This document shows positions 19,671-47,810 of a DNA stretch of 64,000 nucleotides, piece after piece. Below the pieces are notes generated by a model. It saw nothing but the letters and a program-made list of their open reading frames with translations, had not been told where the DNA came from and searched no databases. The DNA comes from Tubulanus polymorphus (lineage: Eukaryota > Animalia > Nemertea). Position 1 is the stretch's first letter. Each line of letters begins with the position of its first letter. Position numbers and translations under genes: made by a program. The stretch is taken from the NCBI RefSeq assembly GCF_964204645.1, contig NC_134026.1, positions 12,894,050 to 12,958,049 on the forward strand, in the 5' to 3' direction.

Positions 19671-21608
<1,938 letters not shown>

Positions 21609-21620
21609 AAGCCCCCCACC
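21609..21620 (-). promoter_or_regulatory. Polypurine tract
   Basis: Minus strand GGTGGGGGGCTT immediately precedes the 3' LTR. Confidence 0.8.
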
Positions 21621-21727
21621 AGCCCTGAACGTCCTCGTTCAGACGAGGCGACATAACAAAACATACATGTTATACAATATAGAAAACATACAGGTTATAC
21701 AATATATGTGAGGGAAACGACGACAGT

Positions 21728-22597: not shown

Positions 22598-22649
22598 ACT
22601 ACAATGAAGTAATAAAAACACAGTTTTTAATTATGCGACATCGGTTTCG

Positions 22650-25600: not shown

Positions 25601-26444
25601 CTCTCAGAAATTCAGGTAATTGGTCATTCGACTTCGACGCATCTGATGTATTAGTTTCCGTATATATTTTCGAAATTTGTCCAATTACCCCTAAGGGTGT
25701 CCCCTTATGGATAATCTTCGGATGCGAACTAAGGTTCACCATTCGAACAGGAATACGACTACTATTTATATTTACAACCTCTTTGGCGACCAGTACTTCC
25801 GGTCCTAGCCTCCAGTTGTTACTAGATTCTATTAAACCCCATTGTCCAGGTGGTAATGTCGTCTTTACGTGACCCGACACCATGACTTCAGAATTCGGAG
25901 GTAAGACTATTTTCTCATCGTTACGTACATAGGCAGAATTCCGTTCGAGCTGGCCCGTCGGAATAGAAAAAGCTTGATTCCCTCGGCATGTCACAGTGCC
26001 GGTACCCGGATGGATATGGCAGTCATATGCGGTAAGGAAATCCATCCCTAGAATAGCATCATCTGTGATGTCAGCGACTATCACGTCCCACATTATATCA
26101 GAAGAAAAGAGACCTAACGGAACTCTAGCCGTCCCTGCGACATCCAGGGGGCTATTATCAGCAGTATATAAATTATACTTTGTCTTCTTCAAGGTGAGTT
26201 TCTTCTTTAGATTGATTTCAGAAAATAATTTCTTACTCCACACTGTGAAGTGGGCGCCCGTATCTACTAAATACTTTGTGTCACGACCGAGAATTCTTGC
26301 AGATAAATGTATAGTTTCAGGTAAGATGTTCTCATATGAAAGAACCTTGATCTTTCCTGACTGATTAGATTTGATAGGTAGGTGAGGATGTGTCTGTCCG
26401 GGTGTTACCCCTTCCCTCTCAGGAGTAACAGCATCTAGTTTCCC
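22650..26444 (-). CDS. pol: Gypsy Pol polyprotein (protease, RT, RNase H, integrase)
   Basis: Uninterrupted ORF 22650-26522 with LVDTGA, LDLASGYWQV, YLDD, DTDAS, HHCC zinc finger and SDQG..GMIER integrase motifs. Probably entered by -1 frameshift at GGGAAAC (26444-26438). Confidence 0.97.
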   Translation of the reverse strand, partial: GKLDAVTPEREGVTPGQTHPHLPIKSNQSGKIKVLSYENILPETIHLSARILGRDTKYLVDTGAHFTVWSKKLFSEINLKKKLTLKKTKYNLYTADNSPLDVAGTARVPLGLFSSDIMWDVIVADITDDAILGMDFLTAYDCHIHPGTGTVTCRGNQAFSIPTGQLERNSAYVRNDEKIVLPPNSEVMVSGHVKTTLPPGQWGLIESSNNWRLGPEVLVAKEVVNINSSRIPVRMVNLSSHPKIIHKGTPLGVIGQISKIYTETNTSDASKSNDQLPEFLRDLYHRSCEGLSAEECRDVKHLLSEYSDVFASSSLDLGEASETSHVINVGNAVPTKQRFRRLPLATQEEVNKLVDDMLKAHVIEESDSPWCSSIVVVRKPDNSIRLCLDYRDVNALTKADSYPLPLINDTIRSLADVKYLSTLDLASGYWQVKVHEDSKEKTAFVVGGKGLYQFRKMPMGLKNSGATFQRLMEKVFRSLIPEIALVYLDDVIVHAGSFLGMMTNLRTVFNRLRQANLKLKPKKCELFRTSVHFLGHHISADGISCSENKIEIIQNWPTPKNVTETRSFLGLASYYRSFCQGFAETAKPLHRLTEKGREFKWDAQCEEAFRELKSILTHSPVLAFPDPSLPFILDTDASAFSIGGVVSQVQEGKERIIACASRCLTKAERNYCVTRRELLAVVAFVKQFKYYLADKKFTIRTDHSSLRWLMSFKEPEGQVARWISLLSVYQFDIIHRPGRSHGNADALSRMPCRQCERIDGICSEKQTPASVRNRVVKKMTIHNDMPYSYSEFLPSTEWSLENMKEEQRKERDLEWILTHVDDDKRPKWHQVSSQGVACKFYWTHWNDLKMIEGLIYIIKRRKGYPDSTLLILPETFRKQVLVHIHSSSVGGHFGVKKTLFLVHDRFFWYGIHDDVKNFCKLCDKCASKKPSNRQKAPMNNYLVGQPMERVSMDILGPLPETYDGNLYVLVVGDYFTKWVEAYAIPNLEAITCARKLVDEFVARFGVPRIIHSDQGRNFQSKLMAEVCELLQIHKTRSTAFRPQSNGMIERYNRTLLMCLSIKVEENQRDWDQHLPYVTMAYRATVHDATGFSPNRLMLGREVDLPIDVITGGPRSEIPVLSSQYVIEMKHRFSESFHEVRNQTLKRAKRNKIQYDIKSQLPKFPIGSTVWLYTPAVPSGKSKKLSCLWSGPCNVLENFNDVIFRIKLPSGKEKCVHGDRLKTYMLSRCDVNPLLSEDGPDVTESQPYQTRTGRPVFPPRRLGWD

Positions 26445-27484
26445 TGCTTCTTCGCGTAATTCGGCTTGGGTTGTTCCCACGGTCTGTTGGGAGCCTGTCT
26501 TCGACCTCCGAGGAGGGGACAATTAATTCGGATGTGGCCTTGTTGGTCGCAGTTAAAACATCTTCGATTTTCTACAGAGGTCGGGTTCTGAGTTTTAATA
26601 GCCCGGACGTCGGCGGCCAACCGGGTAACAGCATCCGTCAGTTGTCGGATAGCCCTGGAATCTTCAGAGTTCGCAGCAGGCGTTGAGGCGACCGCGTTTA
26701 TTTGCGACTTGAAGTTCTCATGGTTACGAATGTTTTCCATTGCGTGAATGCTTTCTAATTCAAGTGCGTAGTTTACAAGTGCATCAAATGAGCATGTATC
26801 CTTCTGATACATGAGAATCCGGGTCTCGACTTCTGGGAGGGCTTCGATGAAATGGTTCCGACAGAGGCGTTCCCTCTGTTTTGGGGTCAAGTCAGGATAA
26901 GCTAGTCTTCCCATAGAAATGATCGTCTGACCAAGTTCCTTCAGTGATTCGCCTCGTTTGCGTCGACGAGATCGTAATTCGGCAAGGTGAATCTCTGCTC
27001 TATGACTCGGTCCGAATCTGCTCTCCAGGGCTGTACATAATTGGAAATAATTCGTTATCTCATCGCTTGTCAAATTGCAAGCCAACTGCCTTGCAGCGCC
27101 ACGTAGGTGTGAAAATAACATGTCAGCTTTGGTCTGCGAGTCCCATCCATTCAGACGAGACACCGTCTCGAAAGTTACTAAGTAATCATTCCATGGTTCA
27201 TCACCATTGTAACACTCAGGTTTCATTTTACAGGTCAAGATACGGGACATCTGACCTGAAACATCAGTGCGGGAAGATCGAGACCCATTCATCACAACAG
27301 GTCGAGGAAACTCATCAATGACTGGAGCATCAGCGGGTCTAGGGACCCCGGCGTCAGGATAGTCTCCAGAACTTCGGTTTACGAACTCAGCAGGCGACAA
27401 AGCTCGTTCTCCTACGACTAAACTCTCGGAGCTACGACTCCGAGTAACACTTCTAGACATCCCACGAGTTTCACGACGACTCAT
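26435..27484 (-). CDS. gag: Gypsy Gag
   Basis: 349-aa ORF with a capsid-like region (KPECYNGDEPW) and CCHC knuckle CFNCDQQGHIRINC; overlaps pol. Confidence 0.93.
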   Translation of the reverse strand: MSRRETRGMSRSVTRSRSSESLVVGERALSPAEFVNRSSGDYPDAGVPRPADAPVIDEFPRPVVMNGSRSSRTDVSGQMSRILTCKMKPECYNGDEPWNDYLVTFETVSRLNGWDSQTKADMLFSHLRGAARQLACNLTSDEITNYFQLCTALESRFGPSHRAEIHLAELRSRRRKRGESLKELGQTIISMGRLAYPDLTPKQRERLCRNHFIEALPEVETRILMYQKDTCSFDALVNYALELESIHAMENIRNHENFKSQINAVASTPAANSEDSRAIRQLTDAVTRLAADVRAIKTQNPTSVENRRCFNCDQQGHIRINCPLLGGRRQAPNRPWEQPKPNYAKKQGN

Positions 27485-27760
27485 AATTGTGTTTATAGTA
27501 TTCTCGGACTATATGAAAACCTATCGTATTAGATAAGAGAAACGAGAGTCATTTCACGCGTCACGTCATTAAAATATGTTCCTACTTTATCTAATTATTT
27601 GTATGAATATTTAATTTAAACGCTGTCACGAGGAGGAGGCCTGCAAAAAAAAAAAAAAATAAGGGAACCCAGGAGTCAGCCACCGAATAGTTGATCCTAT
27701 CAATCCGTCACACGTCATCAGCTAGCTTCAAGGATAGATACCTCGTCAGTTTTATCACTG

Positions 27761-27778
27761 ATCCCACCGCTGCCACCA
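27761..27778 (-). promoter_or_regulatory. Primer-binding site, tRNA-Leu type
   Basis: Minus strand TGGTGGCAGCGGTGGGAT, 4 nt inside the 5' LTR; complementary to a tRNA-Leu 3' end (..ATCCCACCGCTGCCACCA). Confidence 0.85.
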
Positions 27779-28583
27779 ATTTTGTAGCCGCGACGCCCGG
27801 AGCCTCCCTCGGAGAGGTGGGTGACTCAACGGAGAGGTGGCGCCAGGGTAGCCTTTACGGAATAAAGGATGGTACGATCGCAAAAGGTTGAAAGCCTGTT
27901 TTGGTCGATGGCGAGTGACGTCACTAGTACAAATTCCGAGCGGTTCGAATCCCACAATACGCCAAAATCACTACGGCCGCTCTGAGCGCACATCGCATTT
28001 CAACGTTGCCGTTTAATAATTGTAAAATAACTAATAATAGTTTAAGTTTTATAAGGGTTAGAAGTACATTGTATTTACTGCTAGTGTATGTATATATCAT
28101 GTACGGTTGCGAGAAATCCCTGCCCTGGTTAAACAGTAAGTCCACTAAATCTTTAAATTTTAAGTTGTTTAATGAAACTATTATTGTTTTAAATTGTTAA
28201 AACTGCAAACTATGGTTGTCGAAGATGCACCTTCTTCACATCCTTTGAAATCCTGGATAGCATCGCTGTCGGCAAAGACCTTCAGGTCTGTCTTCAACGG
28301 CACATCGCTTCTGGAACAAGCGACTACTGTGTTATCAAATCTGAACTAGGTAAAAAAATGTTCCCCAAAAATAAAGACAAGTAAACGGATTAATTTGAGG
28401 TTTGAATGTTTTTGTTTATTTGTTGGTTTAAATCGAACCCTCGTCATCCTGATCTCCATAAATCTAAGAAAAGTATTCGCACACTTAAAACAATAAAATA
28501 CGAGCAATAAGCAATAACATCAGACTGGAGTAAGTAACTTTACTTAATTCACAGATACAATCCTACACAAAACAATAGCTATT

Positions 28584-28829
28584 CAGTGGCGGATCCACCC
28601 CTCTATTTTTACCGATGTAGCCGCAAATCTATGCGTTACTGAGTAAAAACCGAATGAAATGTTTCTATTAAGTAATGCTCAGAATGCACCTGCTTGCATC
28701 TATTTTTCCAAAAAATTTTTAGGGAGGGTCTTCGCGTTATCGGTGCTTGCTCTGGAATGGCTTACAGCCATCTGTTGTTGCTTTCATTTGCCCCCCCCCC
28801 CCCCCTTCAAAATGCTGGATCCGCCCCTG
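28584..28829. mobile_element. Small hAT-like MITE inside the MULE
   Basis: TIRs CAGTGGCGGATCCA / TGGATCCGCCCCTG; no clear TSD. Confidence 0.6.
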
Positions 28830-28959
28830 AGTGCAGACAAAATGATCGACAAAGACATACAGAACTCTAAAACAACAGTTAACAATTTAAGCAACGATAG
28901 ACAAAACAGATAGCTGATTACTTTACAAACCTGTTGTCAGAACCTTAATTATTTTTACA

Positions 28960-29895
28960 TGTACATACAGAGGACTGTTAACAATTCAACCAATGAAATT
29001 GCGATAGAGATACAGAACATACAGCTTTAACAGTAAACAATGCAACCAATGAAATTGCGATAGAGATACAGAACATACAGCTTTAACAGTAAACCATGCA
29101 ACCAATGAATTGCGATTAACTAAGACCTACGAGCAATTATCAAGTTTGATAATTGCTCGTAGCTAAGACATACAGGACAAACAGGACTAACTTAATTGCG
29201 ATAGACATACAGGACATACAGGATTAACAGTAGACAATTCAACCAACGAATTGCGATTAACTAAGACATACAGGACTAAACCACAGGACATACAGGACTA
29301 ACAGTAGACAATTCAACAACCAATGAATTGCGATTAACTAAGACATACAGGACATACAGGACTAACTTAATTGCGATAGACATACAGGACTAACAGTAAA
29401 CAATGCAACCAATGAATTGCGATCGCGATCACAAAGACATACAGGACAAAACCACAGGACATACAGGACTAACAGTAGACAATTCAACCAATGAATTGCG
29501 ATTAACTAAGACATACAGGACATACAGGACTAAACCACAGGACTAACAGTAGACAATTCAATAACCAATGAATTGCGATTATTTAAGAAATACAGGACTA
29601 ACTTAATTGCGATAGACATACAGAATATACAGGACTAACAGTAAACAATGCAACCAATGAATTGCGATTAACTAAGACATACAGGACATACAGGACTAAC
29701 AGTAGACAATGCAATCAATGAATTGCGATTAACTAAGACATACAGGACATACAGGACTAACTTAATTGCGATAGACATACAGGACTAACAGTAAACAATG
29801 CAACCAATGAATTGCGATCGCGATCACAAAGACATACAGGACAAACAGGAATAAACCACAGTAAATTGCGATAAAAAAGACATACAGGACTAACT
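28960..29895. repeat. Irregular tandem minisatellite inside the MULE
   Basis: Shuffled modules GACATACAGGACTAAC, AGTAGACAATTCAACCAATG and AATTGCGATTAACTAA. Confidence 0.9.
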
Positions 29896-30672
29896 GCAGT
29901 AAATATATAGGGCCTTAGGAATGCAAAATACATTCATTTTGTCGAATTTAAACATTCCACAACTTATTTCATTATGTCATTTCCAGTTTTCAAAGGGAAT
30001 TTTCTTAACTTCAGATGCCTCGAGGACATAAACATATAGAAAGATCTGTCCCAAAAAAATGTCAAGTGTCTTTCATAGTGCAATGGGCCCTGGTTTCCAC
30101 GTTTATATATCACATATAAAATTCTACAGAAACAATCAATGAATAAGTGAAAATTTACGAATAACAAACAAGACATTCAAGCAGTTGAGTAAGTTAAAAT
30201 GGGACCAATCTATATATATTATATATGGATTATACAATTTAATCAGGGACAGCCTTGAACCGAGGTTGATGTGTCCATACACTCTCTTCATACACTCTCT
30301 GAACATGCATGTATGTATACTGCTGCCAATTGATGATAAGTCAAGGATGTTGAAGTTCTAGACATGGTCAGAATCATCCAGAGACATCGGCACGCATCAC
30401 AATAACTGATGATTTTGCAGTAACCTGTAACATAAAAAATCAAGCGGTAATCTATTCACAAAATATATTTTCCTGAAAGAAAAAACCTGAAATAGAGCAC
30501 TATAAACACCAGTGCATATACATCGCTTCTTAACCTTATATATAATCGAGTAAATATATAGGTGACTAAGTGACGGTCATTATAGGCTTCTTCGTTCACC
30601 ATGGGAAATGAAAATATTTCTAACGTCAGGGATTCATTCGAAACCCGATCAATAATATTCAATACAAACTAT

Positions 30673-32880
30673 TTAGGAAATCGGGTCACAATGAAAACAA
30701 AACCACCTGATATGTTCAGGAGGAGCCTCATTGATTGGAGCACATTTCCAATGATACCATCTATGGCAATTATCACATTCAATTGAGAATGTGGACTTTT
30801 TCTTAGGATTAGCATTGCAGTTTTTGTGGCAGACAGGGCAGGTTTCAGCAACTAACTGAGAAGGGGTTTTTTCAACTTTTGATGAAAAAAGATTATCTAG
30901 TTTCAATTTTGCTAGGTTTTGGAGGCCTGCATTTCCAGGTTGATCTATAAGAATTTCTAATTCTTTTTCAGAATTGGAATTATTGATTTCTGTAATAGGA
31001 GAACTGTTGAGATAATCATCTCTATTATTATAATCGATTACAATAGATTTTTTCTTATGATGATTATGTTCAATACCAATGTGCTTTTGAAGGAATGTTT
31101 CACTTGCATATGAATTAATAACCCCATCTGCCCAACAAATAGCACATGAGATAGGTTTCAAAGATGAATGAGAAGTGGATATGTGCCTATCTAGTTCCCT
31201 GCGACATGAACAAAGATATGGAGGAATTATTTTGTCTTTAATACAAAAGGAACAGACAATACTTTTTTCAAATAAAACAGACTTCGAGTCATTTTTAACA
31301 ACTGGTATTGACTTAATATCTTTTGGTTTGGTATCTTTTGATTTTTTCGGTAAGGATGATTTATTCTGACTTAAAATATCTGCTGAAAATTCGATATCAT
31401 TGCCAGGATCTGGATCAGTGGAGTCTATGGTTTCAATTTCTGATATTTTAGCTTTTTTACCTAGTTTGATAGCAGCATTTTCAACCATAGCAGAAAAGGA
31501 TACACCTCTGTTAGCAGGTCTAATTATCTTTCGCCCTCCGTGTCTTGCATTCTCAGCATCTTTAGGCATTGTAACCTTAGGGCAGTAAGGGTCTATCACT
31601 TCAAGTTCAGGAAGGTTTATGGCAACCTGATTGTCCTTGATTGGACCCTCAGCACGCCTATGAGCCATATTGTGAGGTTGTCGTTTGGCTGGTCGTCCGC
31701 TTATTAACTTAATTCCACAGTGGCTTTCATTATGTAAAATACTTAGAATGTGCCCTTTCCGAGCAGCATTGATATCATTCGAGCTAGCAATGTGGGAATG
31801 ATCTTTTAACTTATCAATGAGGGTAGATGAAACAGAACTATTTTGTCGAGTAAAATTGTAAGTTGGCAGAGGCTCCACAATGTGGAATTTATATGCATCA
31901 ATTAAAGCCTTTGTTGTGGTTATATTGTTTTTTTGGGCAAAACAGGCAAAAAGATGTTTGCAAAAATATGGTTGTCCAATCATTATAAAAGCTTCACAAG
32001 TACATATACCTAGTTTCAAATTGATTAAATGGCAATTACCATCTACGTATGAAAGACAATTTTCAGGAACGATTGTAATAACGTAATTGAATAAGATACG
32101 ACTGGATATTGAATCTAAATTTCCTATGTACCTTCGGCATTTTTTTGAAATGTCGTATGAATGTTCCTCGGATATTGATACTTTATCGGGGAATCTTTCT
32201 TCTAAAACATCAAGCTGATTGAATGTATATTGAGTATCACCATTGAAAAAATTATCATTATCTTCTAACCTATTTAAGTTCTTTCGTGAAGAACTCTTCA
32301 CAACAAACCAATTAGTTTCTTCATCATATTTTAAAATCTCATTATTCTGTAATAAATCAAAGGCTCTTTTGCAACACTTTTCTATCTTTTCAAGGTGACG
32401 TATATTCTTAACTCGTTGGTCAAGTTGCTTAAATTGGAGATTGTTCATATTTGTCGCTTTGATCTCATCATTAAAAACATTTTCAAACAGTAATCGTACA
32501 AAAGAGGATATCAGTTTATTTAGGTGTCCACTTAAGTAGACATCATCTAGTTGTTTGAATTTGCGCTCAGTAATATTATCAGTTAATAGCAAAGGGTTAT
32601 TTCTGTTAGATTGGTCTGACTGATAAATTGATTCAGCATTGAATGCATCAGATTAAATTTGGGAATTAAACCAATTCTTCTTTAGGTAATCAATAAATAA
32701 TGTTTTTGTATCTTGCGACATAAGGTCTAAAGAAATATCATTCTCAATAAAACTAATAAATGAATTGGCTATATCAGTTCTAGAGGAAGCATCCCATGAT
32801 CTCATAATGCATTTGAAACCAGTTTCTAGAGGCTTGCAAAATAAGCGAAGTTCTTGATTTTCATTTCATATACTGCCTAC
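30673..32880 (-). pseudogene. MULE transposase C-terminal half with SWIM, C2H2 and PHD fingers
   Basis: Upstream FIDYLKKNWF (then a stop), TDNITE (MULE TNNxxE), SWIM CTC..CKH, two C2H2 fingers, and terminal PHD CPVC..IECDNCHRWYHWKC..WFCFHC. The N-terminal DD region is absent. Confidence 0.8.
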
Positions 32881-34955
32881 GGCTACTGCGACTGGTGGTT
32901 CGGTTGGCAGAAATTACTTGTTAACATGGGGGGGGGGGGGAAGTAAGCGTGGATGAAGACAAATTAATTTAGCCGAGTAAGTAGCAAGTAAGTAAAGTAG
33001 TGGCAGTACAGTAGGCCTAGCGACAATGTGAGTGTGGTGGTAACGTGGCCGTGGTGGCAATAACAAGACTCCAAAACTGGCAAAAGCCAAAATTAAAAAG
33101 CCCTGCCGCCGCGCGGTCGCGACGCCTCGCCTGTACCACCGTGTACGATGCTCGCGGCGTTCACCAGTGTTACCCAGTGAGTTTTTTATAATCTTGCAAT
33201 CTACCTCTTTTTTCAAACCAATATTCCCACCAACTGGTCCGGAGACAAGCTTAACACGTTCGGAAAACATGATTCACAATCTTTTAATCAACAGCCAGCA
33301 AGAATACACTTGACAGCAAATTCAAATTCAGCGGTTAACCGTTAAAAGTGAGTTGTTTAGCTGTGGGAGTAACAAAAAGGCGATCTTGATGACGTCACTA
33401 GCCATCGACCAAAACAGGCTTTCAACCTTTTGCCACACGATCTCAAAGTGTCCGAGTTCCAAGGCTTCTTCGTCAGAGCATGGCTACAAGGGTCCGCCTT
33501 CGTCGAACAATCCCGGGTAGTAGGACTGCAAAGGGGAAAAGTCATCCTCCGAAGGTTGATAAATGGAAAGCGGCTGACTCAAGGGAAAAAGGGGTTCCAC
33601 GAGGGCTAAATAGTGTCAGAGGTGAGTGCGAATCGTACCCCACAACCCCATGGCTGGATGAATGGGTCACCAGACCAGTCAGGACGAGTGTCCGCCGTGT
33701 GATCAGTCAAGTCAGGGCCCTTGACAAGACGCGAGATCACACGGTCACCCGAGCACCGGCGCCTACTTCTCCTCTGGTATCCTCTGGTGTAAAGTGTCAT
33801 TCCAAGTGCCTCCAGCACGTAGCTCTCGCAACCGGCTTCTTTGGCTTGCCCCAGCTTACTATGGACTCATGTGACACACAAATTAGGGGAATAAAGGGAC
33901 ACAGACCTCCTCCTCTACTCGCGACAGAGAAAACGAGAGTTTTAAAATTCAATATATATTAATAATATTTTCCAAATTTAACTCGTACGTTCATATAAAT
34001 GAAATGTATATTATATTCTATAATTAAACAGAATAAACTTTTAAAAATCAACGTAGAAAACTTGCTCTGATTCATTATTTTTAACAATCTAATAAATAAT
34101 CTAATTATTGCATTTGCCCGGAATTTAAAAAGGTCGAGCTTATTATGTCTACGGATATATACATAAATTAAGCTCAAAGATCATGTGTCAAGAAAAGAAT
34201 TGACAGAACCGGGTCGCCGAGTTGACCCCGATAACGTTGAACTGACGGCATCTCAGAATTTATATATAGGTCGCCACGTTGACCTATATAAAACGAGATT
34301 TAATAGATCGCCAGGTTGATCTATTAAAGTCAAAAGGGAATCAAAGTGATTATAGGTCGCCAAGTTGACCCAGAGCACAAGATCATTAAGCAATAGACTT
34401 CGTAACGAGGGTCCTACCCGACGCCAAGAGGACTCGGCGCCGGGTTGAACTACGTACCTCAGATAATTTGAGCGAACTGACTTTCTCAATTCAAAAAAGT
34501 GCAAGGTGACATCACGCTGCACTCAGCGCTGATTGGCTGAGTGCCACAATGACGTCAGGAATGCGAGCAACGTGACGTCACATTACAACAAAATGGCGGA
34601 CATTGGAGCGTGAGGAGGTAATTTTTATATAAAACCTAATATAATTAAGTTATAAATGGACGGAACGATAAGAAAAATACGTGAAAACATTTTGATCCAA
34701 GGTTTATACATTCTGTACAAATTTCAAAGCGATACGATAATTTAAAGGTGTGGGAAATGATCGGACAAAATTGCAAAAAGGGGAGATTTAGAAAAGTTGC
34801 GCTAATTACCGCCCAAAACCGACCGACCATTTCCAACACCGGAAATACAAAACTATCAACCACGCGCAGGGCGGCGGAGGAGCTCTGCAGAAGAAAACAC
34901 CCCGAAAAACAACTACGGCAAGGGATTTTCCGCTACAATATATATATATATATAT

Positions 34956-36382
34956 CATTGGTTCAACTGTTTTAGAAGTATCAAAATTATTAATGTATGA
35001 TTTTTATTATAATGTTTTACAACCACTTTTTGGGGAAAAACATATAGAAATCTTATATTTTGATTCTGTAACAGCTGACACCCCAATATTATTAAAATGT
35101 AATGATAAAATTTTAATTAGAAGAATTTCAGAAATAATTCCAAAACAAAATGAATGTTATATTTCATATGGTGAGAAAGAATTAATACAAATAAATGGTT
35201 TAATGGATGTTTGGACAAGAAATGGATGGAAAAAATTAAAGAATATTATTAGGCATAAAACAAATAAGAAAATCTATAGAGTTAGAACTAAATTAGGGTT
35301 TGTAGATGTTACAGAAGATCATAATTTAATTAAACGAAATGGTGATGAAATAAAACCAACTGATATAAAAATTGGAGATGAATTATTACATAAAAGATTT
35401 TTTCCAAAAATGAATCATATGTCATTCGATGAAATTATTGATAATATTTATAATATAGAACCTGAAACATTAGAAGAAAAAGAATATTTTATCAAAGGAT
35501 TTTTCATGGGTGATGGTTCAGCAGGTGTGTATAATTATGTTTGGGGTAATAAATATTGTTGGTATTTATGCAATCAAGACTTGAAATTATTAGAAAGAAT
35601 TAAGAAATTCTGTGAAGAAGTTTATTCACATAAAACATTTGAATCATGGATGTTATGAAATCATCAGCAGTTTATAGAATACTTGTAAATAATCCTAAAG
35701 ATTTTGCTATAAAATATAATGATGAATTCTATATTCATGCAATAGTGAAAAGTAATACTTCAACAAAAGAAAAGATAGTTCCAGATTATGTTCTAAATGC
35801 AAAAGATAATTTAAGAAAATGGTTCTTCATTGGATTCTACGCAGCAGATGGTGCTAAAAAATTTACAAAGGATAAAAAGATAACCTTTGCACAGAAAGGA
35901 AAAGTTGCTATATCAGGATTAAATATATTATGCAGTTCATTAGGATTTAATATGAATATAGAATTAATTAAATCTAAACCAAATTGTTTTAATTTAAGGC
36001 ATACAGAAAAAGATTTAACTGAAGAAGTTAGAGATTTATTTGAAATATATAACTCATCAGATTATGTTTATGATTTATCAACTGAAGATGGTACATTTAA
36101 CTGTGGATTTCCATTAATTTGCTTCAATACTGACGCCTACATACTAAAAATCAAGACAAATGACATAACAAAAGACTTAAAAACATTGAAACATCATTTT
36201 GATTTTAGCAATTATCCCAAAGATCATGAACTATTTAGCAATGATAATAAAAAGATTCCTGGTAAATTTAAAGATGAATTAGGGGGTGATGAAATGATTG
36301 AATTTGTTTGGATAAGAAGTAAAATGTATAGTTATAGAACAAAAGACCATGAAGCTAAAAAATTAAAAGGAATAACAAAAGA
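34956..36382 (+). pseudogene. Polinton protein-primed DNA polymerase B, paralog B copy 1 (C-terminal fragment, intein-containing)
   Basis: IGSTVLEVSKLLMYDFYY..LYFD [intein] TDAY..FDFSNYP..GKFKDE..RSKMYSY..KKLKGITK. Confidence 0.93.
35065..36128 (+). mobile_element. Intein with LAGLIDADG homing endonuclease in pPolB motif C (copy 1; 1-nt deletion near 35640)
   Basis: Block A SVTADTP, block B VTEDH, blocks C/E GFFMGDG and GFYAADG, block F YVYDLST, C-terminal N followed by extein T. Removal restores YFD-TD. Confidence 0.93.
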
Positions 36383-36384
36383 AA

Positions 36385-36756
36385 ATGTATTTATATTTAT
36401 TATTTAACGATTATTATAAAAAACCTAAATTAACAGAAGAAGATATGGAAAATATAAAAGAAACATTCATACAAATATTAAGATATTATGTGGATAATAG
36501 TATAACAGATTCAATTAATTATGAATTCTTTTTAAATAAGATTTTAAATTATCTAAACATCGATATTATAATTCCATTTGATGAATTAACAAACAAAAAG
36601 AAACAAAGAGAGCGAGATGAAATGTGGAATAATATAGAACTTTATTTAAATGAGAAAAATGAAATGGAAGAACCTAAACAAATTATACAAGAACAATTAA
36701 ATGAAAAAGAAGAAACCAATAGTGATTTCGAGTTTGACGATATCGATCCATTTTAA
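36385..36756 (+). CDS. Polinton accessory ORF of unknown function (acidic), possibly 5'-truncated
   Basis: 123-aa ORF with the same AT-rich codon usage. Its stop overlaps the convergent pPolB stop at 36753-36755. Confidence 0.5.
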   Translation: MYLYLLFNDYYKKPKLTEEDMENIKETFIQILRYYVDNSITDSINYEFFLNKILNYLNIDIIIPFDELTNKKKQRERDEMWNNIELYLNEKNEMEEPKQIIQEQLNEKEETNSDFEFDDIDPF

Positions 36757-37710
36757 TAACCATAAGGTAATGTTATACCATCATCTGAAATATGTCTTTT
36801 ATCATCAAATGGATTTAAACTAGTTTTTTCAACTTCATTAAAACAACTTATATCCAGGATTATCATTTACATTGAAATATCTATCACCTAATACACCTGA
36901 AACTCCTCCTCTTATAGATTTTTCAAATAATAATAATTGATCTATATTTGTTAACCAATCCATTTTTATGTCTGTAAATTTTAAACCACAATCCCAAGTT
37001 AATCCTGGTGATGAATAACAATGGCAAGGATCAATATTAAAATATTTTAGGTTTACATCTCTAAACCTTTCGAATATATCCGATAATAATAATACATCAG
37101 ATTTTAAATATAAATCTACTAACTGCCATGATTTGTTATTTTAAAATGATTGCAAATATTCAATGTTCTATTATATACTTCATCTTTAACATATTCATTT
37201 TTTAATTCACCATAGAATTGTTCTTTTAATAATTCAGTTATATTAAAATCATTATGCGATTTATAAAATGAATATGGTATTGCGCCTCTATATCTCATTA
37301 ATTGAAAATCATCATTATTTGGATAGTGTTGTTTTAATATCTTTAATTCATCATCAACTAATGATTTTGATAAGTTATCTAATGAACTACCTAAAAATCT
37401 ATATGAATCCATAATCTTAGACACCCAAATTGGAAAGATATATAATTCTCAGATGTTTTAGCTAACATTTTAAATTTATAAGTTGGTTGGTATTTTATCT
37501 TTTGATCTATTTGAATTTAATTTTTCTATTTCATTATTGATTTCTTCTATTTTATGACATAGCTGTTTGATGAATAAATGAGCTTCATATCCTGATAAAT
37601 TATGAAATATTACTGGAACAAAGTTAATTTTCTTAGCTTGTAAGTTACAATTCTCATGGGCTGCGCCTCTAAACTTTCCATTCAAATGAGCATGGTCTCT
37701 TACTTTTTTA
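36753..37710 (-). pseudogene. Polinton pPolB, paralog A copy 1 (internally deleted)
   Basis: RDHAHLNGKFRGAAHENCNL, FHNLSGY, DSYRFL and RGGVSG, then a jump directly to the C-terminus SLNPFDDKRHISDDGITLPYGY*. Motifs A-C are deleted. Confidence 0.88.
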
Positions 37711-38227
37711 AATTAAAAAATATAGCAAGTCTGCAATTTATCATACAGCGGCACACATGTCGAATCTCACAATTATTACAATACAATTCAAACATAGATT
37801 ATGGAACATGAGCAATTTTTCTAATATGTCACTAGATATTATCAATTTCATAGTCAACGTGGAAAAATAAAAAGCCTTATAAAGTACAGTTTGAAATTAC
37901 ACTGCAAACAAAACTAATTTGAATCACGATATCCCTGATATAGAAATAAAACATTAAATTCCCACAATTGAAAATTGGCTTAAAAGTTTCTCAAAATATA
38001 TCTAGATTTCAATTGAAATTCATACCAATAGGCAATGGAGTACTGTATCATTTTTAGTCAATTAAAAATTGTGGAATTTTAACCTTTAAAAAATGATATA
38101 TTGATAACTTTGGGCTACATGCTATCCGTCGACAACATCACTATTCTACTCCCATATTTACGAGTATTATATAATAGATTGACATGGACATTTTGAATAC
38201 ATTTTATGTAAATAATCATTACACCAT

Positions 38228-38414
38228 CAACCCTATAACCAACTAATCGTCTAAACCCTAAACCTCTTAACCCTAACTATTTTGAAACCTAACAATCTGA
38301 ATTGTAACCCTCTAAACCCTAACCGCCTAAACCCTAAACCCTTACCATCTAAACATTTAACAATCTAAACCATTAACCCTCTAAACCCTAACCCTCTAAA
38401 CACTAAACCCTACA
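38228..38414. repeat. Degenerate telomere-like (CCCTAA-related) satellite, left part
   Basis: AAACCCTAACCCTCT-type units; continues after the TIR element at 46688. Confidence 0.8.
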
Positions 38415-38684
38415 ACCCCTGTGAAGCTGGCTACCGGTTCCCGGTTCCTTATTCGGCTCCCGATTCAAAACCATTTTGAATCGGGAGCACAAGGTTCACA
38501 GTTTTTCATGCAGTCAACCTCGGCTAATTCCTATCACCGTCCTTACATTAATCAGAGTGAGATTGCTGCCCGGCCAAATTGCCCCGTAACAACTGTTTTC
38601 ATGGGTGCCAAATGAGCCCTGAATAAAAACGCTGGACCAGGTTCAAGCCAAATCTAGCACGGGCTAGAGGTTCCGGAAATGACA

Positions 38685-39093
38685 AGCAATAGGGGTAATG
38701 GGCTTTCATACCAAAGGTCGAAAGGTCGAGCTCATTAAAAACAAAACATTAAAAGTAATTTAAAACTATAATATATTTTCATAACCGTGTGCATTTTATA
38801 TTATAACTAAATATTTATTCTAAGATATCAATAATTTAAATTTTAAAAGCATATTGTATTAAATCCATTGGTCGCTCCACTACGCTGCCGCTCCGCTCCG
38901 CGACCAATTGATTTATTTACAATACACAAATTCATATAATCAAATATATTCAAATAATAATAATTATTCTATTATTCAACTGAAATACACACGGTTATGA
39001 AAATATATTATAGTTTTAAATTACTTTTAATATTTGTTTTTAATGAACTCGACCATTCAACCTTTAACCTGAAAGCCCATTACCCCTATTACT
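38685..39093. repeat. 409-bp imperfect palindrome with AG..CT ends; candidate Polinton terminus/origin
   Basis: AGCAATAGGGGTAATGGGCTTTCA...TGAAAGCCCATTACCCCTATTACT. Arms pair imperfectly up to a GC-rich loop near 38876-38899. Lies ~200 bp upstream of the pPolB start. Confidence 0.8.
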
Positions 39094-39298
39094 CTTAAAA
39101 TATTCATGTACATGAATAACATTTAAATTGACAGATTATTCAATATAAAAGTATATATTTACAACATTATTTCAATATTCATATTTGTGTGAGTTAGATT
39201 TTTAAACATTAAAAGTGTAAGTAAAGTGTGATTGAAATAATGCATGATATAAATCATTGAACTTCTAAAATCAATTTAAAAAAAAATTTAGTATTAAA

Positions 39299-41687
39299 AT
39301 GGAAGCAAATAAGTACTACTGTCCAACATGTAATATCAATATAGATAAATCCCAAAAAGCAAGACACAATAAAACTAAAACACATTTAGAGAATAAATTG
39401 AAACTAGAATATGAAGATGATATATTAGAAACTAAATTAGATGAATTAAAGAATGAAAAAGAAACATATAAATGTGATACATGTAATCAATCATTCAGTG
39501 ATAAAAGATATTATAAAGAACATTTAAAATCTAAAAGTCATATTAGAAATATGAATAATGATATTTTAGGTGAAGATTATTTTGATAAAGATAATGATAA
39601 GAAACAGAAGACAATTAAAAGTATAAAAAATAAATTAAACAATAAAAGACCATACATAGAAGATGTAAGAAAATATATTAATTCATTAGATAATAAAAAA
39701 GATATAGAGATAACCGAAGCATTTAAAAGTGATATTGGCCCAGCAGCTATCGAGTTGAAATTTCATAAAGGAAAAACATTAGAAGAAAATAAAAAACATT
39801 TAGAAAATATGAAAGAAATAATAAAAATAATAACTGATGTTGAATATCCTAAAATAAGTATTTCATTAAAAGTTAAATTCATAAAATCTGAAGATAAACC
39901 AATATATAATATAAATTCTCATTCACAACATATTATATATAATCAACATATAGATGATAAATTAGATAAATGTTTTAATGAAGTAAAAACTAAAATAGAA
40001 GAGAAATATTTTGAAGGATCTGGTTTAATATTTGATGAAATAATATTTATGACTTTACATGTTTATAACACAAAATATAATAAGTTAACTAAATCAAAAC
40101 CAATTGATGAAAATAACGTATCATATTACGTATCATAAGAACCAGATATTGAAGCATCGAGTTATATTAAACTACCATTTAAAACTAATGCTGTAATAAA
40201 TGTACAAAATGAAGATGATAAATGTTTTCTATGGGCTATAAAGAGTTGTTTACAACCAACAGAAGATATTACACATAGTTTTAGATTAACTCATTATAAA
40301 CAATTTGAAAATAATTATAAGATAGATAAGTATCCTGTTTTAATTAAAAACATCCCAAAAATAGAGAAGAGATAATAATATAAAGATAAATGTATTTGAT
40401 TTAATCAAATTACCAAATACAAAAGGTAACAATATAAAACATTATACATTAGAACCTTTATATCTATCAAAAGATTATGATTCAAATGATGTTATAGATA
40501 TACTATATTATGAGAATCATTACATGTGGATTAAACAAATCGATTAATTTTTTTAATCAGAAAATGATCACCATAAAATATATCTTTGTAGAAAATGTTT
40601 ACATAAATTCAGTAATGAAAGTACATTATTAAATCATAAACAATTATGTGAAAATCATGATTATTGTAAATTAGTTTTACCAAATGAAAAAGATAAAATA
40701 TTAGAATTCAAAAAATATGATTACAAAAATAAGGTACCATTTGTAATATATGGAGATTTTGAATCATTAAATAAAGAATTAACTGATCAAGATAGAAAAG
40801 AAATATATTATAAAAGAAAGAAATTAAATTCTAATGAAAATGATCTTTCAGATGAAACGCCAAAACAAATACTATTAAAAAGATTCATCAATCAGCTGCT
40901 GCTTTCGGGTTATATATTAAATCTGATTATCCAGAACTAATTAAAAGTGAATATTATGATTATAGAAATGAAAATGTTATCAATCATTTTTGTGACTTAT
41001 TAATTGAATATGAAATAAGATTTAGTAAATTATTGAATACAAATATAGAAATTATAATGACAGAAGAAGATAAAGAAAAATTTGCGTTTGCAGATAAATG
41101 TTATTATTGTGAAAAGATATTTAATTATAAAGATAAAAAAGTAAGAGACCATGATCATTTGAACGGAAAGTTTAGAGGCGCTGCACATGAGAATTGTAAC
41201 TTACAAGCTAATTAATTTTGTACCAGTTATATTTCATAATCTATCAGGATATGATGCACATTTATTTATCAAACAGTTATGTCATAAAATAGAAGAAATT
41301 AATAATGAAATAGAAAGATTAAATTCAAATAGATCAAAAGATAAAAAACCAACTTATAAATTTAGAATGTTAGCTAAAACATCTGAGAATTATATATCAT
41401 TCCAATTTGGGTGTTTAAGATTTATAGATTCGTATAGATTTTTAAATAGTTCATTAGATAACTTATCAAAATCATTAGTTGATGATGAATTAAAAATATT
41501 AAAACAACATTACCCAAATAATGATGATTTCCAATTAATGAGATATAAAGGCGCAATTCCATATTCATTTTATAAATCACATAATGATTTCAATATATCT
41601 GAATTATTAAAAGAACAATTCTATGATGAATTAAAAAATGAATATGTTAAAGATGAAGTCTATAATAGAACATTGAATATTTGGAAT
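39299..41687 (+). pseudogene. Polinton pPolB, paralog A copy 2 (N-terminal two-thirds)
   Basis: Two N-terminal C2H2 fingers, EGSGL, SYIKLP..NEDDKCFLW, YGDFES (ExoI), endonuclease VII-like CYYC..RDHDHLNGKFRGAAHENCNL, FHNLSGYD (ExoII). Frameshifted and truncated. Confidence 0.92.
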
Positions 41688-44600
41688 TAGTATGTAGGCG
41701 TCGGTATTTTTTTTTGATTAATGGGAACCCAGAATTGAACGTTCCATCATCTGTTGATAAATCATAAACATAGTCAGTTGGGTTATAAATTTCAAATAAA
41801 TCTTTAACTTCTTCTGTTAATTCTTTTTCTACATGCCTTAAATTAAAACAATTTGGTTTAGATTTAATTAATTCTATATTCATATTAAATCCTAATGAAC
41901 TGCATAATATATTTAATCCTGATATAGCAACTTTTCCTTTCTGTGCAAAGGTTATCTTTTTATCCTTTGTAAATTTTTTAGTGCCATCTGCGGCATAGAA
42001 TCCAATGAAGAACCACTTTCTTAAATAATTTTTTGCATTTAATACATAATCTGGTACTATCTTTTCTTTAGTTGAAGTATTACTTTTCACTATTGCATGA
42101 ATATAGAATTCATCATTATATTTCATAGCAAAATCTTTAGGATTATTTACAAGTATTCTATAAACTGCTGATGATTTCATAACATCCATGATTCTAAATG
42201 TTTTATGTGAATAAACTTCTTCACAGAATTTCTTAATTCTTTCTAATAATTTCAAGTCTTGATTGCATAAATACCAACAATATTTATTACCCCAAACATA
42301 ATTATGCACACCTGCTGAACCATCACCCATGAAAAATCCTTTGATAGAATATTCTTTTTCTTCTAATGTTTCGGGTTCTATATTATAAATATTATCAATA
42401 ATTTCATCAAATGACATATGATTCATTCTTTGGAAAAATCTTTTATGTAATAATTCATCTCCAATTTTTATATCAGTTGGTTTTATTTCATCGCCATTTC
42501 GTTTAATTAAACTATGATCTTCTGTAACATCTACAAATCCTAATTTAGTTCTGACTCTATAGATTTTCTTATTTGTTTTATGTCTAATAATATTCTTTTA
42601 TTTTTTCCATCCATTTCTTGTCCAAACATCCATTAATCCATTTATTTGTATTAATTCTTTTTCACCATATGAAATATAACTTTCATTTTGTTTTGGAATT
42701 ATTTCTGAAATTCTTCTTATCAATATTTTATCATTACATTTTAATAATATTGGGGTGTCAGCTGTTACAGAATCAAAATATAATATTTCAATATGCTTTT
42801 CCCCAAAAAGTGGTTGTAAAACATTATAATAAAAATCATACATTAATAATTTTGATACTTCTAAAACAGTTGAACCAATGAATATAGGTTTATTAAATTT
42901 CATTGACGTTCTTTTTAATTTAACTGCTGTTAAATAATCTTCAAATCTTTTATTTCCTAAATGTCTAGGACTTGATTGTAAATGTCTTAATCGTTCAGAA
43001 TTATTTACTAATTCAATATCATTTCTATTTCTAATATTTTCACATGTTTTACCATAAAAACTATTATTCATTAATTTGAAGTAATCTTTTTCAAAATCTG
43101 TTTTTGATATGGTTCTCTGTTGAGTATTAAAATCTATATATTTTTCTAACCACTTCGATTGATTAAATTCAATATATCTATGTACTTTCTTTAATTTCAT
43201 TCCTTGTTTTAGATAAAATTTTAACATTCTATAATGAACAATATAATTGTATTTATTATTTTGAGTAAGTATTAATTTTTCTGTAAAAACATGATCTTTC
43301 GGTTTTATTTTCTTCTGGTATTCACTTAAATAACTATCATCTACAGTTAAATGTTCTGGGCAATAAGGTAAGTTTCTTGTTTTAAACTTTATATTTTCAG
43401 GATATTCTAAATCAACTACAAAGAAATAACCGATTGGTGCTTCATCTTCTAAACTCATAATTGCGCTTTCCCAATTAGTTTTATCACCATTTTCAACTTC
43501 TGTTAGTATAAAATTTTTATATGGTTGAGGTTGCATCATTGCCCAACCATATAAATTATTGGCGTCAATATATAATAATTTATATTCATCATTTGCTTTA
43601 AAATACCATAACACCACTAATTTCACCTCTAATTCATTTTTCAAATAATAAAACCATATCTGGTTCTTTTAATAAATCTAATTCTACATTTGTATATTTT
43701 AAACCACATTGCCAGGTTAAACCAGGACTAGAGTAGCAATAACAAGGATCAACATTAAAATGATTCAAATTAACTTCTCTAAATTTTTCAAATATGTCAG
43801 CCAATATCATAACATCTGATTTTAAATATAAATCAACTAATTCACCATGATTTTTCATCTTAAAATGGTTCCAAATATTTAATGTTCTATTAAACGCTTC
43901 GTCTTTCACATACTCCTCTTTTAATTGGTCATAAAATTGATCTTTTAATAATTCTGTTACATTAAAATCATTGTGTGTTTTATAAAATGAATAAGGAATT
44001 GCGCCTTTATATCTCAATAATTTAAAATCTTGTTCATTTGGATAATAATATCGAGTTATAACAAAATCATTATCAACTAAACTTTTTGATAAATTATCTA
44101 ATGAACTTGCTAGAAATCTATAAGAATCTAAAAATCTAATGCAACCAAATTGAAATGAAATCTAATTTTCAGATGTTTTAGCTAATAGTTTAAAATCATA
44201 TTTTCTTACATTTACACCATTCATAGCATTATATTCTTCTATTTCTTGATTAATTGCACCCAATTTTCTCGATAATTGTATAAATAGATGGGTATCATAG
44301 CCTGATAAATTATGAAATAATATTGGTACGAAATTAACTTTCTTAGCTTGTAAATTACAATCTTCATGAGCAGCTCCACGATATTTTGAATTTAAATGAT
44401 TATGATCTCTAACTTTTTTATCAAATGAATAAAAACGTTTTTCACAATAACAACAATGAGTTGCATAATTATAATCAATTTCATCTTCTTTTGTCATATT
44501 TATTCTTTTATTTTTGTTTAATAATTTTGCAAAATCACTTTCTAATTCAATCATTTTGTCACAAAAATCATTAACTACATTTTCACCTCTGAAAGAAATA

Positions 44601-45988
44601 TATTGATTTTCATATAATTCAGGATAATTTGATTTTATATAAATTCCATAAGCCGCAGCTCTTTGATGAACTTTTTAAATTGTATTTATAATTGGTGGGT
44701 CTTGTATTGTGTCTTCATTTAATTCATTTCCTTTATCCATTGATTTTAATAATTGCTTTTTGTTATATATTTCTTTTCTATCTTGATCAGTTAATTCTTT
44801 ATTCAACGATTCAAAATCCCCATAAAATACAAATGGAACAATATTCTTAAATTTATGATTAGTAAATTTCAATTTATAATCTTTTTCTGTTGGCATTATT
44901 AATTTACAAAAATCTTTATTATCACATAATTCTTTATGTTTTATTAATGTATTCTCAGTCATAAATTTAGATAAACATTTTCTACATAGTTAAATTTTAC
45001 GATGATGATCACTTTCTGTTCTAAAGAATAAATCAATTTGTTTTAACCACATATAATGTTCATTTTCATCTTTTTTATAATATAACAAATCTATAGCATT
45101 TTCATCATCATAATATTCTGTTAAATATAAAGCTTCCAATGTATAATCTTTAATATTTTCACCTTTTGTCTTTGGTAATTGCATTAATTCAAATACATTT
45201 ATTTTTAAATTATTAACTTTTTCTATTTAAGGAATAATTTTTATAGTTACTGGATATTGATCAATTTTATATAATATTTCATATTTCCGATAATCTGTTA
45301 TTCTACAAACATTTTCCTGTGTTGGATGTAAGCAACTAATAATTGACCATAGAAAACATTTATTATCTTCATTTTGAATATTTATTACTGCTTTTGTTGT
45401 AAATGGTAATTTAATATAAGATGATGCTTTAATATCCTTTTCTGTTGTAAAGTTTGAATCATTTTTAAACATTTTATTACTTTTTGATGTTTTATTTCTT
45501 TTTGTATTATAAACATTTAAATCTAAATATATATTTCATTCAATGTTAAGCCAGAACCCTCAAAATATCTTTCTTCAATATGACGTTTAAATTCATTATA
45601 TATTTTTTCTAACTTCTCTTTTATTTGTGTTTTTGAAATTATTTCTTCAGAGAGTGTTTGAATATCATAATCCATTTTATCTTCTGACTTTAAAAAACTT
45701 ACTTTCCCAGAAATACTAATTTTTGGATATTCAAAACCTGTTATTAAATCTAGTATTTTTTCCATTATTTCATTAAATTTATTATAATCTTCTATTGTTG
45801 AACCTTTAAAAAATCTAAATATAATAGCTGCAGGACCAATTTTACTATGTAATGTTTCTAAAATTTCAATTGTATCTTTTATTTCTAGTGAATCGATATA
45901 ATTTCTAACATTTTCCATGTAAGGTTTATTTGAAATGGATTTAGTTTTTGAAGTTGGTTTTTTTACTTTTTGAGGTTTATCGTTTTTC
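41687..45988 (-). pseudogene. Polinton pPolB, paralog B copy 2 (intein-containing, frameshifted, truncated at both ends)
   Basis: YGDFES, RDHNHLNSKYRGAAH, FHNLSGYD, YLKSDV, motif A YIDANNLYGWAM, motif B KLMNNSFYGK, motif C YFD[intein]TDAY. Confidence 0.93.
41706..42771 (-). mobile_element. Intein with LAGLIDADG homing endonuclease (copy 2; TAA at 42598-42600, +1 A in the run at 41707-41715)
   Basis: Near-identical to 35065-36128. Ends FPLIKKN|TDAY after removing one A. Confidence 0.92.
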
Positions 45989-46687
45989 TGGCTGGTGTTC
46001 ATTCTCTCCCATTTATTAGGAAAAAAATTACTTGTGGTGATGAGTGGTGTCTCGCCCTCTCGTCCTCTGATCTGAAACCCACATCTTCCAATTACTGATT
46101 TCCATTGCACACAGACGAAAATATTACGCTATAAACTGAAATATAAATTTAGCCTAACGGCCGTGAAGGTTTGAAAGGTTTTTCCAAAATATCAAAGCAT
46201 TAAGGATTTCAAAGTGATATTGCAATACGTACTTTTTATGGGGTACCTCAAGGAACACACAATGGGATTCACCAAATAAAATATTTCGAGCGAGGCATAA
46301 GAATCAATGACAGATATATTTTCTGGAAAGGACTGGTCACGGAAATTATGTTTTAATCCTTTAGATGTTTGTCATTAATTGGTTTGTCATAAATTGATGG
46401 GTCCAAATGTACCGTGTTAAAACCACAATCAGCAAACATTTTCATTATTGCCAAAGACTGAAAATGTTCCATTGCAAACAAATTAAACAAATTAACAGAT
46501 ATTCATTTAAAAAATTCATTCAGTTGAACATGTAATTGTAAATAATTTTATCCTCCCTCAAGCATTGAAATGTTGGGTGAAATGGTGAAAATAAATCCAT
46601 TCTTTTCTTATTCTGTTCTGATCAAATATTTACTTGAGTTGCAGACATCGGCACGCACGTGGAACCGGGAGCCAGCTTCACAGGGGT

Positions 46688-47810
46688 AACCCTTCACTCT
46701 AAACCCTAACCCCTTTACCCTACCCCTCTAAACCTAACCCGCTAAACACTAAACCCTCTAAACACTAAATCCTAACCCTCTAAACCCTAACCCTATGAAC
46801 CCTACCCCCAAACCCTAACCCCCTAAACCCTTTCCCTCTAAACCTAAACCTCTAAACCCTAACCCAATAAATCCTAACCCTCTAAATCCTAACCCTCTGA
46901 ACCCTAACCCCCTGAACCCTATCCCTGTAAAACCTTACCCTATAAACCCTTAACCCTTACCATCTAAGCACTTAACCCTCTAAACAATTAACCCTATAAA
47001 CCCTAAACCATTACCATCTAAACACTTAACCCTCTAAACAATTAACTCCCTTAACCCTACCCCTCTAAACCTTACCCTCTAAACCTAACCCTCTAAACAC
47101 TGAACCCTCTAAAAACTAAACCCTAACTCTCTAAACCCTGTCCTTTAAACCCTAAACCTCTAAAGCATAACACCCTAAACCCTAACCCTATGAATCCTAA
47201 CCCTCTAAACCCTAATCCTCTAAACCCTGTCCCTCTAAACCCTAACCCTCTAACCCCTAAACCCTAACCCTATAAATCCTACCCCTCTAAACCCTAACCC
47301 TCTGAACCCTAACCCTTTAAACCCTAATCCTCTAAACCCTGTCCCTCTAAACCCTAACCCTCTAACCCCTTAACCTTATAAATCCTCACCCTCTGAACCC
47401 TAACCCTCCGAACCCTAACCGCCTGAACCTAACCCCTAAACCCTATTCCTCTAAACCTAACCCTCTAAACCCTAACCCTCTGAACCCTAACTACCTAAGC
47501 CCTAACCCTATAAATCCTAACCCTCTAAACCCTTACCCTCTAAACCCTAACCCCCTAAACCCTTACCCTATAAATCCTAACCCTTTAAACCCTAACCCCC
47601 TCTAAACCCTAACCCTATAAATCCAAACCCTATAAATATATTATTAAATATATATTATTATATATATTCAAATATATATAATAAAGCCCAATATAATATT
47701 ACTTTAATATAATTAATATAATATTTCTATCTCTTTAAACCCAAACCCTCCAAACCCTAAACCTCTAAACCCTATTCTTCTAAACCCTAACCTTCTAAAC
47801 CCTAACCCTA
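46688..47810. repeat. Degenerate telomere-like satellite (AAACCCTAACCCTCT-type ~15-bp units)
   Basis: Dense CCCTAA/CCCTAAA variants over 1.1 kb. Confidence 0.9.

Follow-up and report, generated by a model that had tools for sequence, protein, structure and literature searches.

A 64,000-nt stretch of genomic DNA (the window) contains a real intein of the known pol-c allele in a new kind of host protein, the protein-primed DNA polymerase of a Polinton, where it interrupts catalytic motif C and carries tandem LAGLIDADG motifs. The genome is likely that of an animal, and the intein family shows the marks of a spreading homing element. We assign a probability of roughly 0.8 to this reading as a whole, in which the intein is predicted to splice and likely spreads by homing among Polintons, the latter because filled and empty versions coexist in the species. 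Here 'filled' and 'empty' refer to polymerase alleles with and without the intein. A complete intein is thereby found in what is likely heritable animal DNA, although its carrier is an endogenous virus-like element and not a host gene.

Two broken intein copies at polymerase motif C

Copy A (35065–36128, + strand, 1064 bp) runs from Ser1 to Asn and contains a Hint domain and two LAGLIDADG motifs. Its Ser codon at 35065 directly follows Y-F-D, the last residues of an N-extein stub of protein-primed polymerase (34949–35064, +) that begins at an (AT)n tract, so that the polymerase fragment starts about 38 codons ahead of the intein site. The terminal Asn codon ends at 36128 and is followed by T-D-A-Y, the start of a truncated C-extein (36129–36385, +) that is 80–87% identical to the empty-site polymerases P0298–P0301. 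The motifs VTEDH, FIKGFFMGDG, FFIGFYAADG and YVYDLST are spread over two frames, with the break near 35640. Copy B is inverted (41706–42771, − strand) and has an in-frame stop at 42598–42600. Its frame also breaks at the C-terminus, in an A-run just short of the intein end, and only about 20 bases of C-extein follow it.

The coordinates and motifs of the original prediction (Ser1, TEDH, two LAGLIDADG motifs, YVYDLST, Asn and Thr+1) were all recovered. Its description of the intein as full-length holds for the DNA but not for coding: copies A and B are pseudogenes, the former within a polymerase fragment, and both survive as dead remnants in a Polinton that has been rearranged and is nested in a chromosome. 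They are ~95% identical (58 mismatches over 1197 aligned bases). We rejected an assembly artefact because the copies differ at these 58 sites mostly synonymously and independent reads cover the intein. GC content is alike in intein (0.255) and extein (0.237) and does not separate the two.

Profile searches, proposed earlier as a check on the Hint and LAGLIDADG identification, bore it out. TIGR01445 (intein_Nterm) matched copy A with 32.6 bits and copy B with 32.2 (cut-off 24.5), and LAGLIDADG_3 (PF14528) matched copy B, translated with X at its stop for searches, with 24.8 bits (cut-off 22.5). The Pfam profile Intein_splicing was below cut-off for the window copies (28.6 vs 35.8) and above it in an unbroken relative, P0004 (37.7).

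Among solved structures, the archaeal polymerase intein PI-PkoII is the closest in sequence (E 1.4e-5). In a predicted model (42-row alignment; pLDDT 90, pTM 0.90), beta-rich halves surround two alpha/beta repeats. The 11 best PDB matches of the model (Foldseek) are all endonuclease-bearing inteins, with TliVMA at the top (E 1.8e-16, TM 0.64) and PI-PkoII, PhoVMA, PI-PfuI and PI-SceI among the matches; I-DmoI also matches (TM 0.68–0.75 by target length). The predicted fold is thus a Hint domain with a nuclease inserted between its halves, which is a class 1 feature.

Other class 1 features are found in the sequence. The nucleophile is Ser at position 1 in both copies (35065 and 42771). In block B, T83 and H86 are at least 90% conserved in the 42 rows, and TxxH is present in 206 of 212 inteins. 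Copy A has the block F Asp in YVYDL, the terminal Asn and Thr+1, and the full set of Ser1, TxxH, block F Asp, Asn and Thr+1 is retained. The canonical His-Asn subtype does not apply, as the penultimate residue of copy A is Phe (Phe-Asn), not His, and His is also absent there in 100 of 211 relatives. The two LAGLIDADG motifs, GFFMGDG and GFYAADG, each contain an acidic residue in what is predicted to be a tandem alpha/beta fold, and both acidic motifs are kept in 8/8 polymerase inteins.

The insertion is precise with respect to the empty allele, as reads join 35064 to the C-extein and empty relatives read YFD-TDS. It lies between D and T of motif C, the pol-c (position III) site. The identification of D|T as the pol-c site of giant-virus and archaeal PolBs agrees with the site definition of Ogata et al. 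(2005; PMC549080), who also note iridovirus inteins. The closest kin of the window intein are inteins at the same D|TD site, among which it nests.

Filled and empty alleles and the marks of homing

Raw DNA reads of run X7, from the same species and another study, were examined (~12% of the run was read). In 42 reads, 35064 is joined to 36138 with three codons, T-D-S, between. A further 140 reads depart from the window at 35064 into T-D-S-Y, and 246 reads lie on the first intein codons. Therefore filled and exactly empty alleles coexist in the species. The empty site had first been written as Asp followed by T-D-A, which needs correction: natural empty alleles code T-D-S, and T-D-A belongs to filled copies.

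The stop of copy B is absent from 198 of 207 X7 reads, and at the two places of the copy A break, 60/167 and 44/149 reads differ from copy A. The breaks are therefore not general to the intein family, as judged from short reads and not whole copies; no unbroken copy is seen among these short intein reads from the species, which counts against the preferred reading. Intein depth in X7 is ~160–240 vs 0–0.4 on the flank at 37650–38251, which may be absent from that individual; one X3 contig covers 37660–38292. Runs X5 and X6, with small shares of the DNA in short pieces only, were left out, and among the runs listed as containing the DNA none was RNA.

Between copies A and B, dN/dS is 0.12 over 347 codons (Fisher p 1e-11). 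In the endonuclease part alone, pN is 0.017 vs a pS of 0.084 (p 7e-4). These ratios indicate that the copies diverged under purifying selection, with the endonuclease part included.

In a search among longer proteins (best 120 of 300 matches listed), the five best listed relatives (P0003–P0007) are protein-primed polymerases whose intein is unbroken, occupies the same site and is 45–62% identical. P0010 and P0012 are two more of this kind, and P0084 ends inside its intein; the remaining listed relatives are mostly RNA-primed PolBs (~28–43%) plus a few topoisomerase II proteins. A full HMMER scan found 2049 representatives (150 listed), and 207 complete inteins, most of them at D|TD, were extracted from 259 proteins. 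An intein tree was built from 72 of 212 inteins, comprising 8 of protein-primed polymerases, 9 of topoisomerases, 4 of gp43-like polymerases, the 30 next-ranking ones and a sample spread over the others; trees were quick IQ-TREE runs with SH-aLRT support only and no mixture model. The 8 protein-primed polymerase inteins form one clade (SH-aLRT 99) within the RNA-primed PolB inteins; the tree does not fix which of the latter is its exact sister.

The intein of P0006 (45% identical, at YLD|TDS) nests in this polymerase-intein clade. Its extein matches PF03175 with 111 bits and has no significant match to the window polymerase type (best E 0.24). Two deep polymerase classes, Alpha and Beta, have been described (PMC8502044), and P0006, one sequence on a 5.3-kb contig, probably represents the other class.

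The filled state is scattered over the polymerases. Of the 120 closest exteins listed, 4 have the intein, 110 lack it and 6 could not be read. On an extein tree of 63 rows (12 filled and 51 of 114 empty), explaining the filled state takes 9 changes, of which 8 are forced by starred branches, and filled rows as one clade are rejected (AU p 3e-42). As the tree is unrooted, these counts do not separate gain from loss, and they would also suit an intein that was ancestral in the polymerase class and was lost precisely many times or swapped by ordinary recombination, with an endonuclease that no longer drives spread. Polintons are prone to recombination, and the window itself combines pieces of two families. 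With so few listed exteins filled, however, loss would be the rule under an ancestral intein.

The P0004 cluster has 136 members, 15 of which are listed; 7 are filled (1537–1539 residues) and 6 are empty, and they are 94–99% identical upstream. The filled proteins are unbroken, 98–99% identical and located on separate contigs of 95–1,018 kb. Between the 7 filled and 6 empty members, 10/10 fixed differences fall between residues −7 and +44 relative to the site, while the other ~1,100 residues have none. Such a pattern is what co-conversion, or escape at the target, would be expected to leave. Counting against it, the P0007 cluster (3 filled, 1 empty) has no flank differences near the site. The clustering of fixed differences in the P0004 cluster, the purifying selection on the endonuclease part, the retention of both acidic motifs, and the nesting together of inteins from distant polymerases, one of them of an unalignable class, all argue against an ancestral intein, which we regard as improbable. 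Homing behaviour, as originally proposed, is instead backed by the empty-allele reads, the intein clade, the P0004 flank differences and the scattered filled state.

Cys replaces the motif C Thr (D-C-D, not D-T-D) in 40/114 empty alleles (P0298–P0415 and cluster members). All Cys alleles are in the branch with P0004, P0005, P0084, P0385 and P0392, and they need 22 changes, 5 of which are forced by starred branches. We hypothesize that Cys at this position might be an escape from cutting by the endonuclease.

In LAGLIDADG homing, the endonuclease cleaves the site that lacks the intein, and the break is repaired with a filled copy as template, which duplicates the intein. By the same biology, the freed protein, with Asp150 and Asp262 (numbered in the copy B read-through), would cut the empty polymerase site, and repair from a filled copy would transfer the intein together with short flanks. 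Many Polinton copies per genome, or co-infection, could provide empty targets without meiosis; the venue could be integrated copies in the germline or free viruses before integration. The origin may have been one capture from a giant-virus-type RNA-primed PolB, and the intein would then have spread between Polinton families and over both deep polymerase classes.

A more far-reaching version is possible, although we put it at less than even odds. Animal Polintons would carry an active homing-intein lineage, captured once from giant viruses, whose members home from one integrated copy to another in the animal nucleus. The lineage would have jumped between both polymerase classes, and in the arms race that it drives, empty polymerases would escape by changing Thr to Cys. 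If true, natural protein splicing and a natural homing drive would be inherited in animal genomes.

Polinton setting and host of the locus

The Polinton context claimed for the polymerase stands, with an integrase, an A32 ATPase and a PF03175 polymerase all matched above cut-off. A Polinton-type rve integrase lies at 18555–19466 (+; PF00665 41.6 bits, cut-off 32.6), and an A32-like packaging ATPase at 19671–19926 (+; PF04665 27 bits, cut-off 22.8) is cut off at an (AT)n tract. The N-extein of copy B (42772–46041, −) is most of a Polinton protein-primed polymerase, with an Endonuclease_7-like domain, exonuclease and palm, and has several stops and frame breaks. PF03175, the protein-primed polymerase profile, matches it at 43637–44161 with 31 bits (cut-off 25.8; relatives 52–62 bits), and among the nearest listed relatives the closest is P0298, which is 89% identical and has an empty site. 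A VLTF3-like gene is located at 36376–36756 (+; PF04947 27.8 bits, cut-off 25). Broken reading frames at 17492–18521 (+) are putatively capsid-like, with a presumed resemblance to the Polinton major capsid protein, a double jelly-roll protein; profile and viral-contig pattern scans gave them no Pfam match and no viral locus. The Polinton is in fragments, of which no ends were recognised, and Pfam scans of the window frames gave no protease.

Pieces of a second polymerase family are also present. Its N-terminal part (39269–41687, +) has ~73% DNA identity to the copy B polymerase and joins copy B end to end, and another piece (36759–37709, −) has an internal deletion spanning the palm and the intein site. 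The polymerase pieces of the two families thus run in inverted and partly mirror-like order across 36759–46041 and meet end to end at 41687. A recent homing event from one of these families to the other was considered and not adopted: the copy A C-extein is 80–87% identical to relatives of both, which leaves its family undecided.

The polymerase block is flanked by degenerate telomere-like arrays of the CTAAACCCTAACC type at 46697–47809 and 38250–38411. Next to these arrays, ~38419–38450 and 46660–46690 match by eye in inverted orientation, and reads at these places are high-copy.

A Gypsy LTR retrotransposon (20031–34937, −) has inserted into the (AT)n tract that separates the ATPase from the intein-bearing fragment. 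The (AT)n tract at the start of the copy A N-extein stub is the Gypsy insertion point too, and with the Gypsy set aside, the ATPase adjoins the intein-bearing polymerase fragment. The Gypsy LTRs, at ~20031–21608 and at 27783–27884 plus 33437–34937, are 98–99% identical, the second being split by an element with terminal inverted repeats (TIRs). A 15-kb Gypsy inside a Polinton and itself interrupted by a TIR element fits a chromosome, not a free virus.

The window is a nest of mobile elements. The TIR element that splits the Gypsy LTR (27876–33436, 5.5 kb) contains a 659-residue PHD-finger frame (30673–32652, −) and is, we assume, possibly Mutator-like. A second, broken Gypsy pol fragment lies at 48858–50709 (−). 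A Helitron-like remnant at 57691–61978 contains a Herpes_teg_N domain (41.9 bits), DUF6570, Helitron_like_N and a 51-bp coding tandem repeat (58458–59455). A frame at 62447–62875 (−), without a Pfam match, is presumed to resemble the C-terminal tail of a non-LTR retrotransposon.

As for the host, the nested Gypsy polyprotein has 20 organism-named relatives among 120 listed, and 20/20 are animals, although at 41–73% identity such retrotransposon matches are a weak taxonomic marker. Atlas clusters nearest to the polymerase are 70–94% eukaryotic, with Arthropoda commonest. The runs containing the DNA are of one species, and the raw reads come from a second study. From the Gypsy relatives, the polymerase clusters, the single species label of the runs and the nesting, the host of the intein-bearing locus is therefore likely an animal. 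The same four observations oppose an origin of the contig from a protist, fungus, symbiont or free virus, by which the intein would be a viral one in a non-animal eukaryote; we consider that quite unlikely, even though no host gene was recognised in the window among the frames scanned by Pfam (23 + 70 frames) and virus-like polymerase inteins are known from algal and labyrinthulomycete scaffolds (PMC10710043).

A free Polinton virus with an intein was not found among 117 viral or metagenome loci with an intein match, in which the polymerase was protein-primed in 0 and a delta-like PolB in 104; these scans are weak for the intein-bearing polymerase family. Viral-contig scans with P0003, P0299 and the capsid-like fragment gave no relatives, and these negatives count as weak because the scans rest on short patterns.

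Predicted splicing and known inteins

By the class 1 steps set out in PMC5874633, Ser1 would make the N-to-O shift, aided by block B Thr83/His86, and the N-extein would be transferred to Thr+1. The terminal Asn would cyclise without a penultimate His, and extein ligation would restore D-T-D of motif C. Splicing would be obligatory because the insert parts the two aspartates of this motif. That the Hint domain works without ligation, as a self-cleaving or domesticated polyprotein module, or that the insert merely inactivates the polymerase, is very improbable, for despite the missing penultimate His and the description of Polinton polymerases as multidomain proteins with inserted nuclease domains (PMC11071308, PMC10748475), cutting without ligation would break the active site, the residues of the splicing reaction are all conserved, and the filled polymerases of the P0004 cluster look like a recently multiplying family.

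The window intein is like the Mimivirus PolB intein in its site (YGD|TDS there, YFD|TD here) and in its ~350 residues, Ser first, Asn last, Thr+1, block B Thr/His and LAGLIDADG domain (PMC549080). The hosts differ, with an RNA-primed Pol-delta-like PolB of a free amoeba giant virus in Mimivirus (PMC549080) and a protein-primed polymerase of an integrating multicopy element here; Mimivirus was compared by description, not as a sequence row. The nearest outgroup is the pol-c inteins of giant-virus-type PolBs, at 33–42% identity, which share the SVTxDTP start and the xN|TDS end. Their hosts are mostly delta-like PolBs, whereas the inteins of protein-primed polymerases are a separate clade. The 37 viral loci found with the intein include many giant-virus MAG contigs. 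The window intein brings protein-primed polymerases into the range of the pol-c allele and suggests gene exchange between giant viruses and Polintons.

Gallot-Lavallee (2023; PMC10710043) described virus-like DNA polymerase inteins on nuclear scaffolds of Klebsormidium, Tetrabaena and a labyrinthulomycete, as well as Anaeramoeba inteins. Those are likewise viral inteins brought into a eukaryotic nucleus, with viruses proposed as vectors, but in non-animal hosts. The main text of that paper lacks the words 'Polinton', 'metazoa' and 'animal', and two of its supplements lack 'Polinton', 'Maverick', 'metazoa' and 'protein-primed'.

Closer to Polintons, Krupovic et al. (2024; PMC11071308) suggested, citing Jeong 2023, that nuclease insertions in Polinton polymerases come from intein invasions, and the window intein offers a concrete case. 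The insertions reported by Jeong et al. (2023; PMC10748475) are HNH and VSR domains; no splicing domain is described for them in the relevant passages of these two papers, and 'intein' and 'hint' are absent from Jeong et al. Unlike them, the window intein is a complete Hint plus LAGLIDADG unit in the catalytic motif, with empty alleles.

A Hint/LAGLIDADG intein in a Polinton polymerase was not found described in searches of the open full-text literature. The word 'intein' is absent from Starrett 2021 (PMC8502044), Barreat 2021 (PMC8097293) and a 2026 preprint (10.64898/2026.10.13.758929). Inteins are mentioned merely in general terms in the passages concerned of PMC12220804, PMC3671162, PMC13768754 and PMC5718144, and the passages of PMC4104785 on protein-primed polymerases describe no splicing intein in a Polinton polymerase.

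The original statement on novelty needs one qualifier. A eukaryote-wide survey counts no inteins in Metazoa and writes of their 'absence from metazoan genomes', which is also the premise for intein inhibitors as antimicrobials (PMC5784728); the algal-scaffold inteins and those of iridoviruses were already known. The iridovirus inteins, cited in PMC549080 and PMC5784728, belong to viruses infecting animals, insects included, and give protein splicing in animal cells a precedent.

Since one genome has many copies with filled and empty alleles side by side, the cycle of invasion, co-conversion, resistance and decay in homing can be tested by sequence alone. Intein-bearing polymerase genes can be missed because the insert breaks the motif used to recognise the polymerase.

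The same intein family also occurs in other proteins. It is found in topoisomerase II (P0008, P0098, P0106, P0108, P0119, P0121, P0122 and P0283), mostly at D|TDG, which resembles the polymerase target; 9 such inteins form one clade, and P0008 has two. Four PolBs of ~1,200 residues (P0014, P0015, P0017 and P0170), which we take to be phage gp43-like from their appearance, carry related inteins nested among giant-virus-type ones. P0097, named DNA polymerase delta, from the green alga Chloropicon primus, carries an intein of the same family at YGD|TDS.
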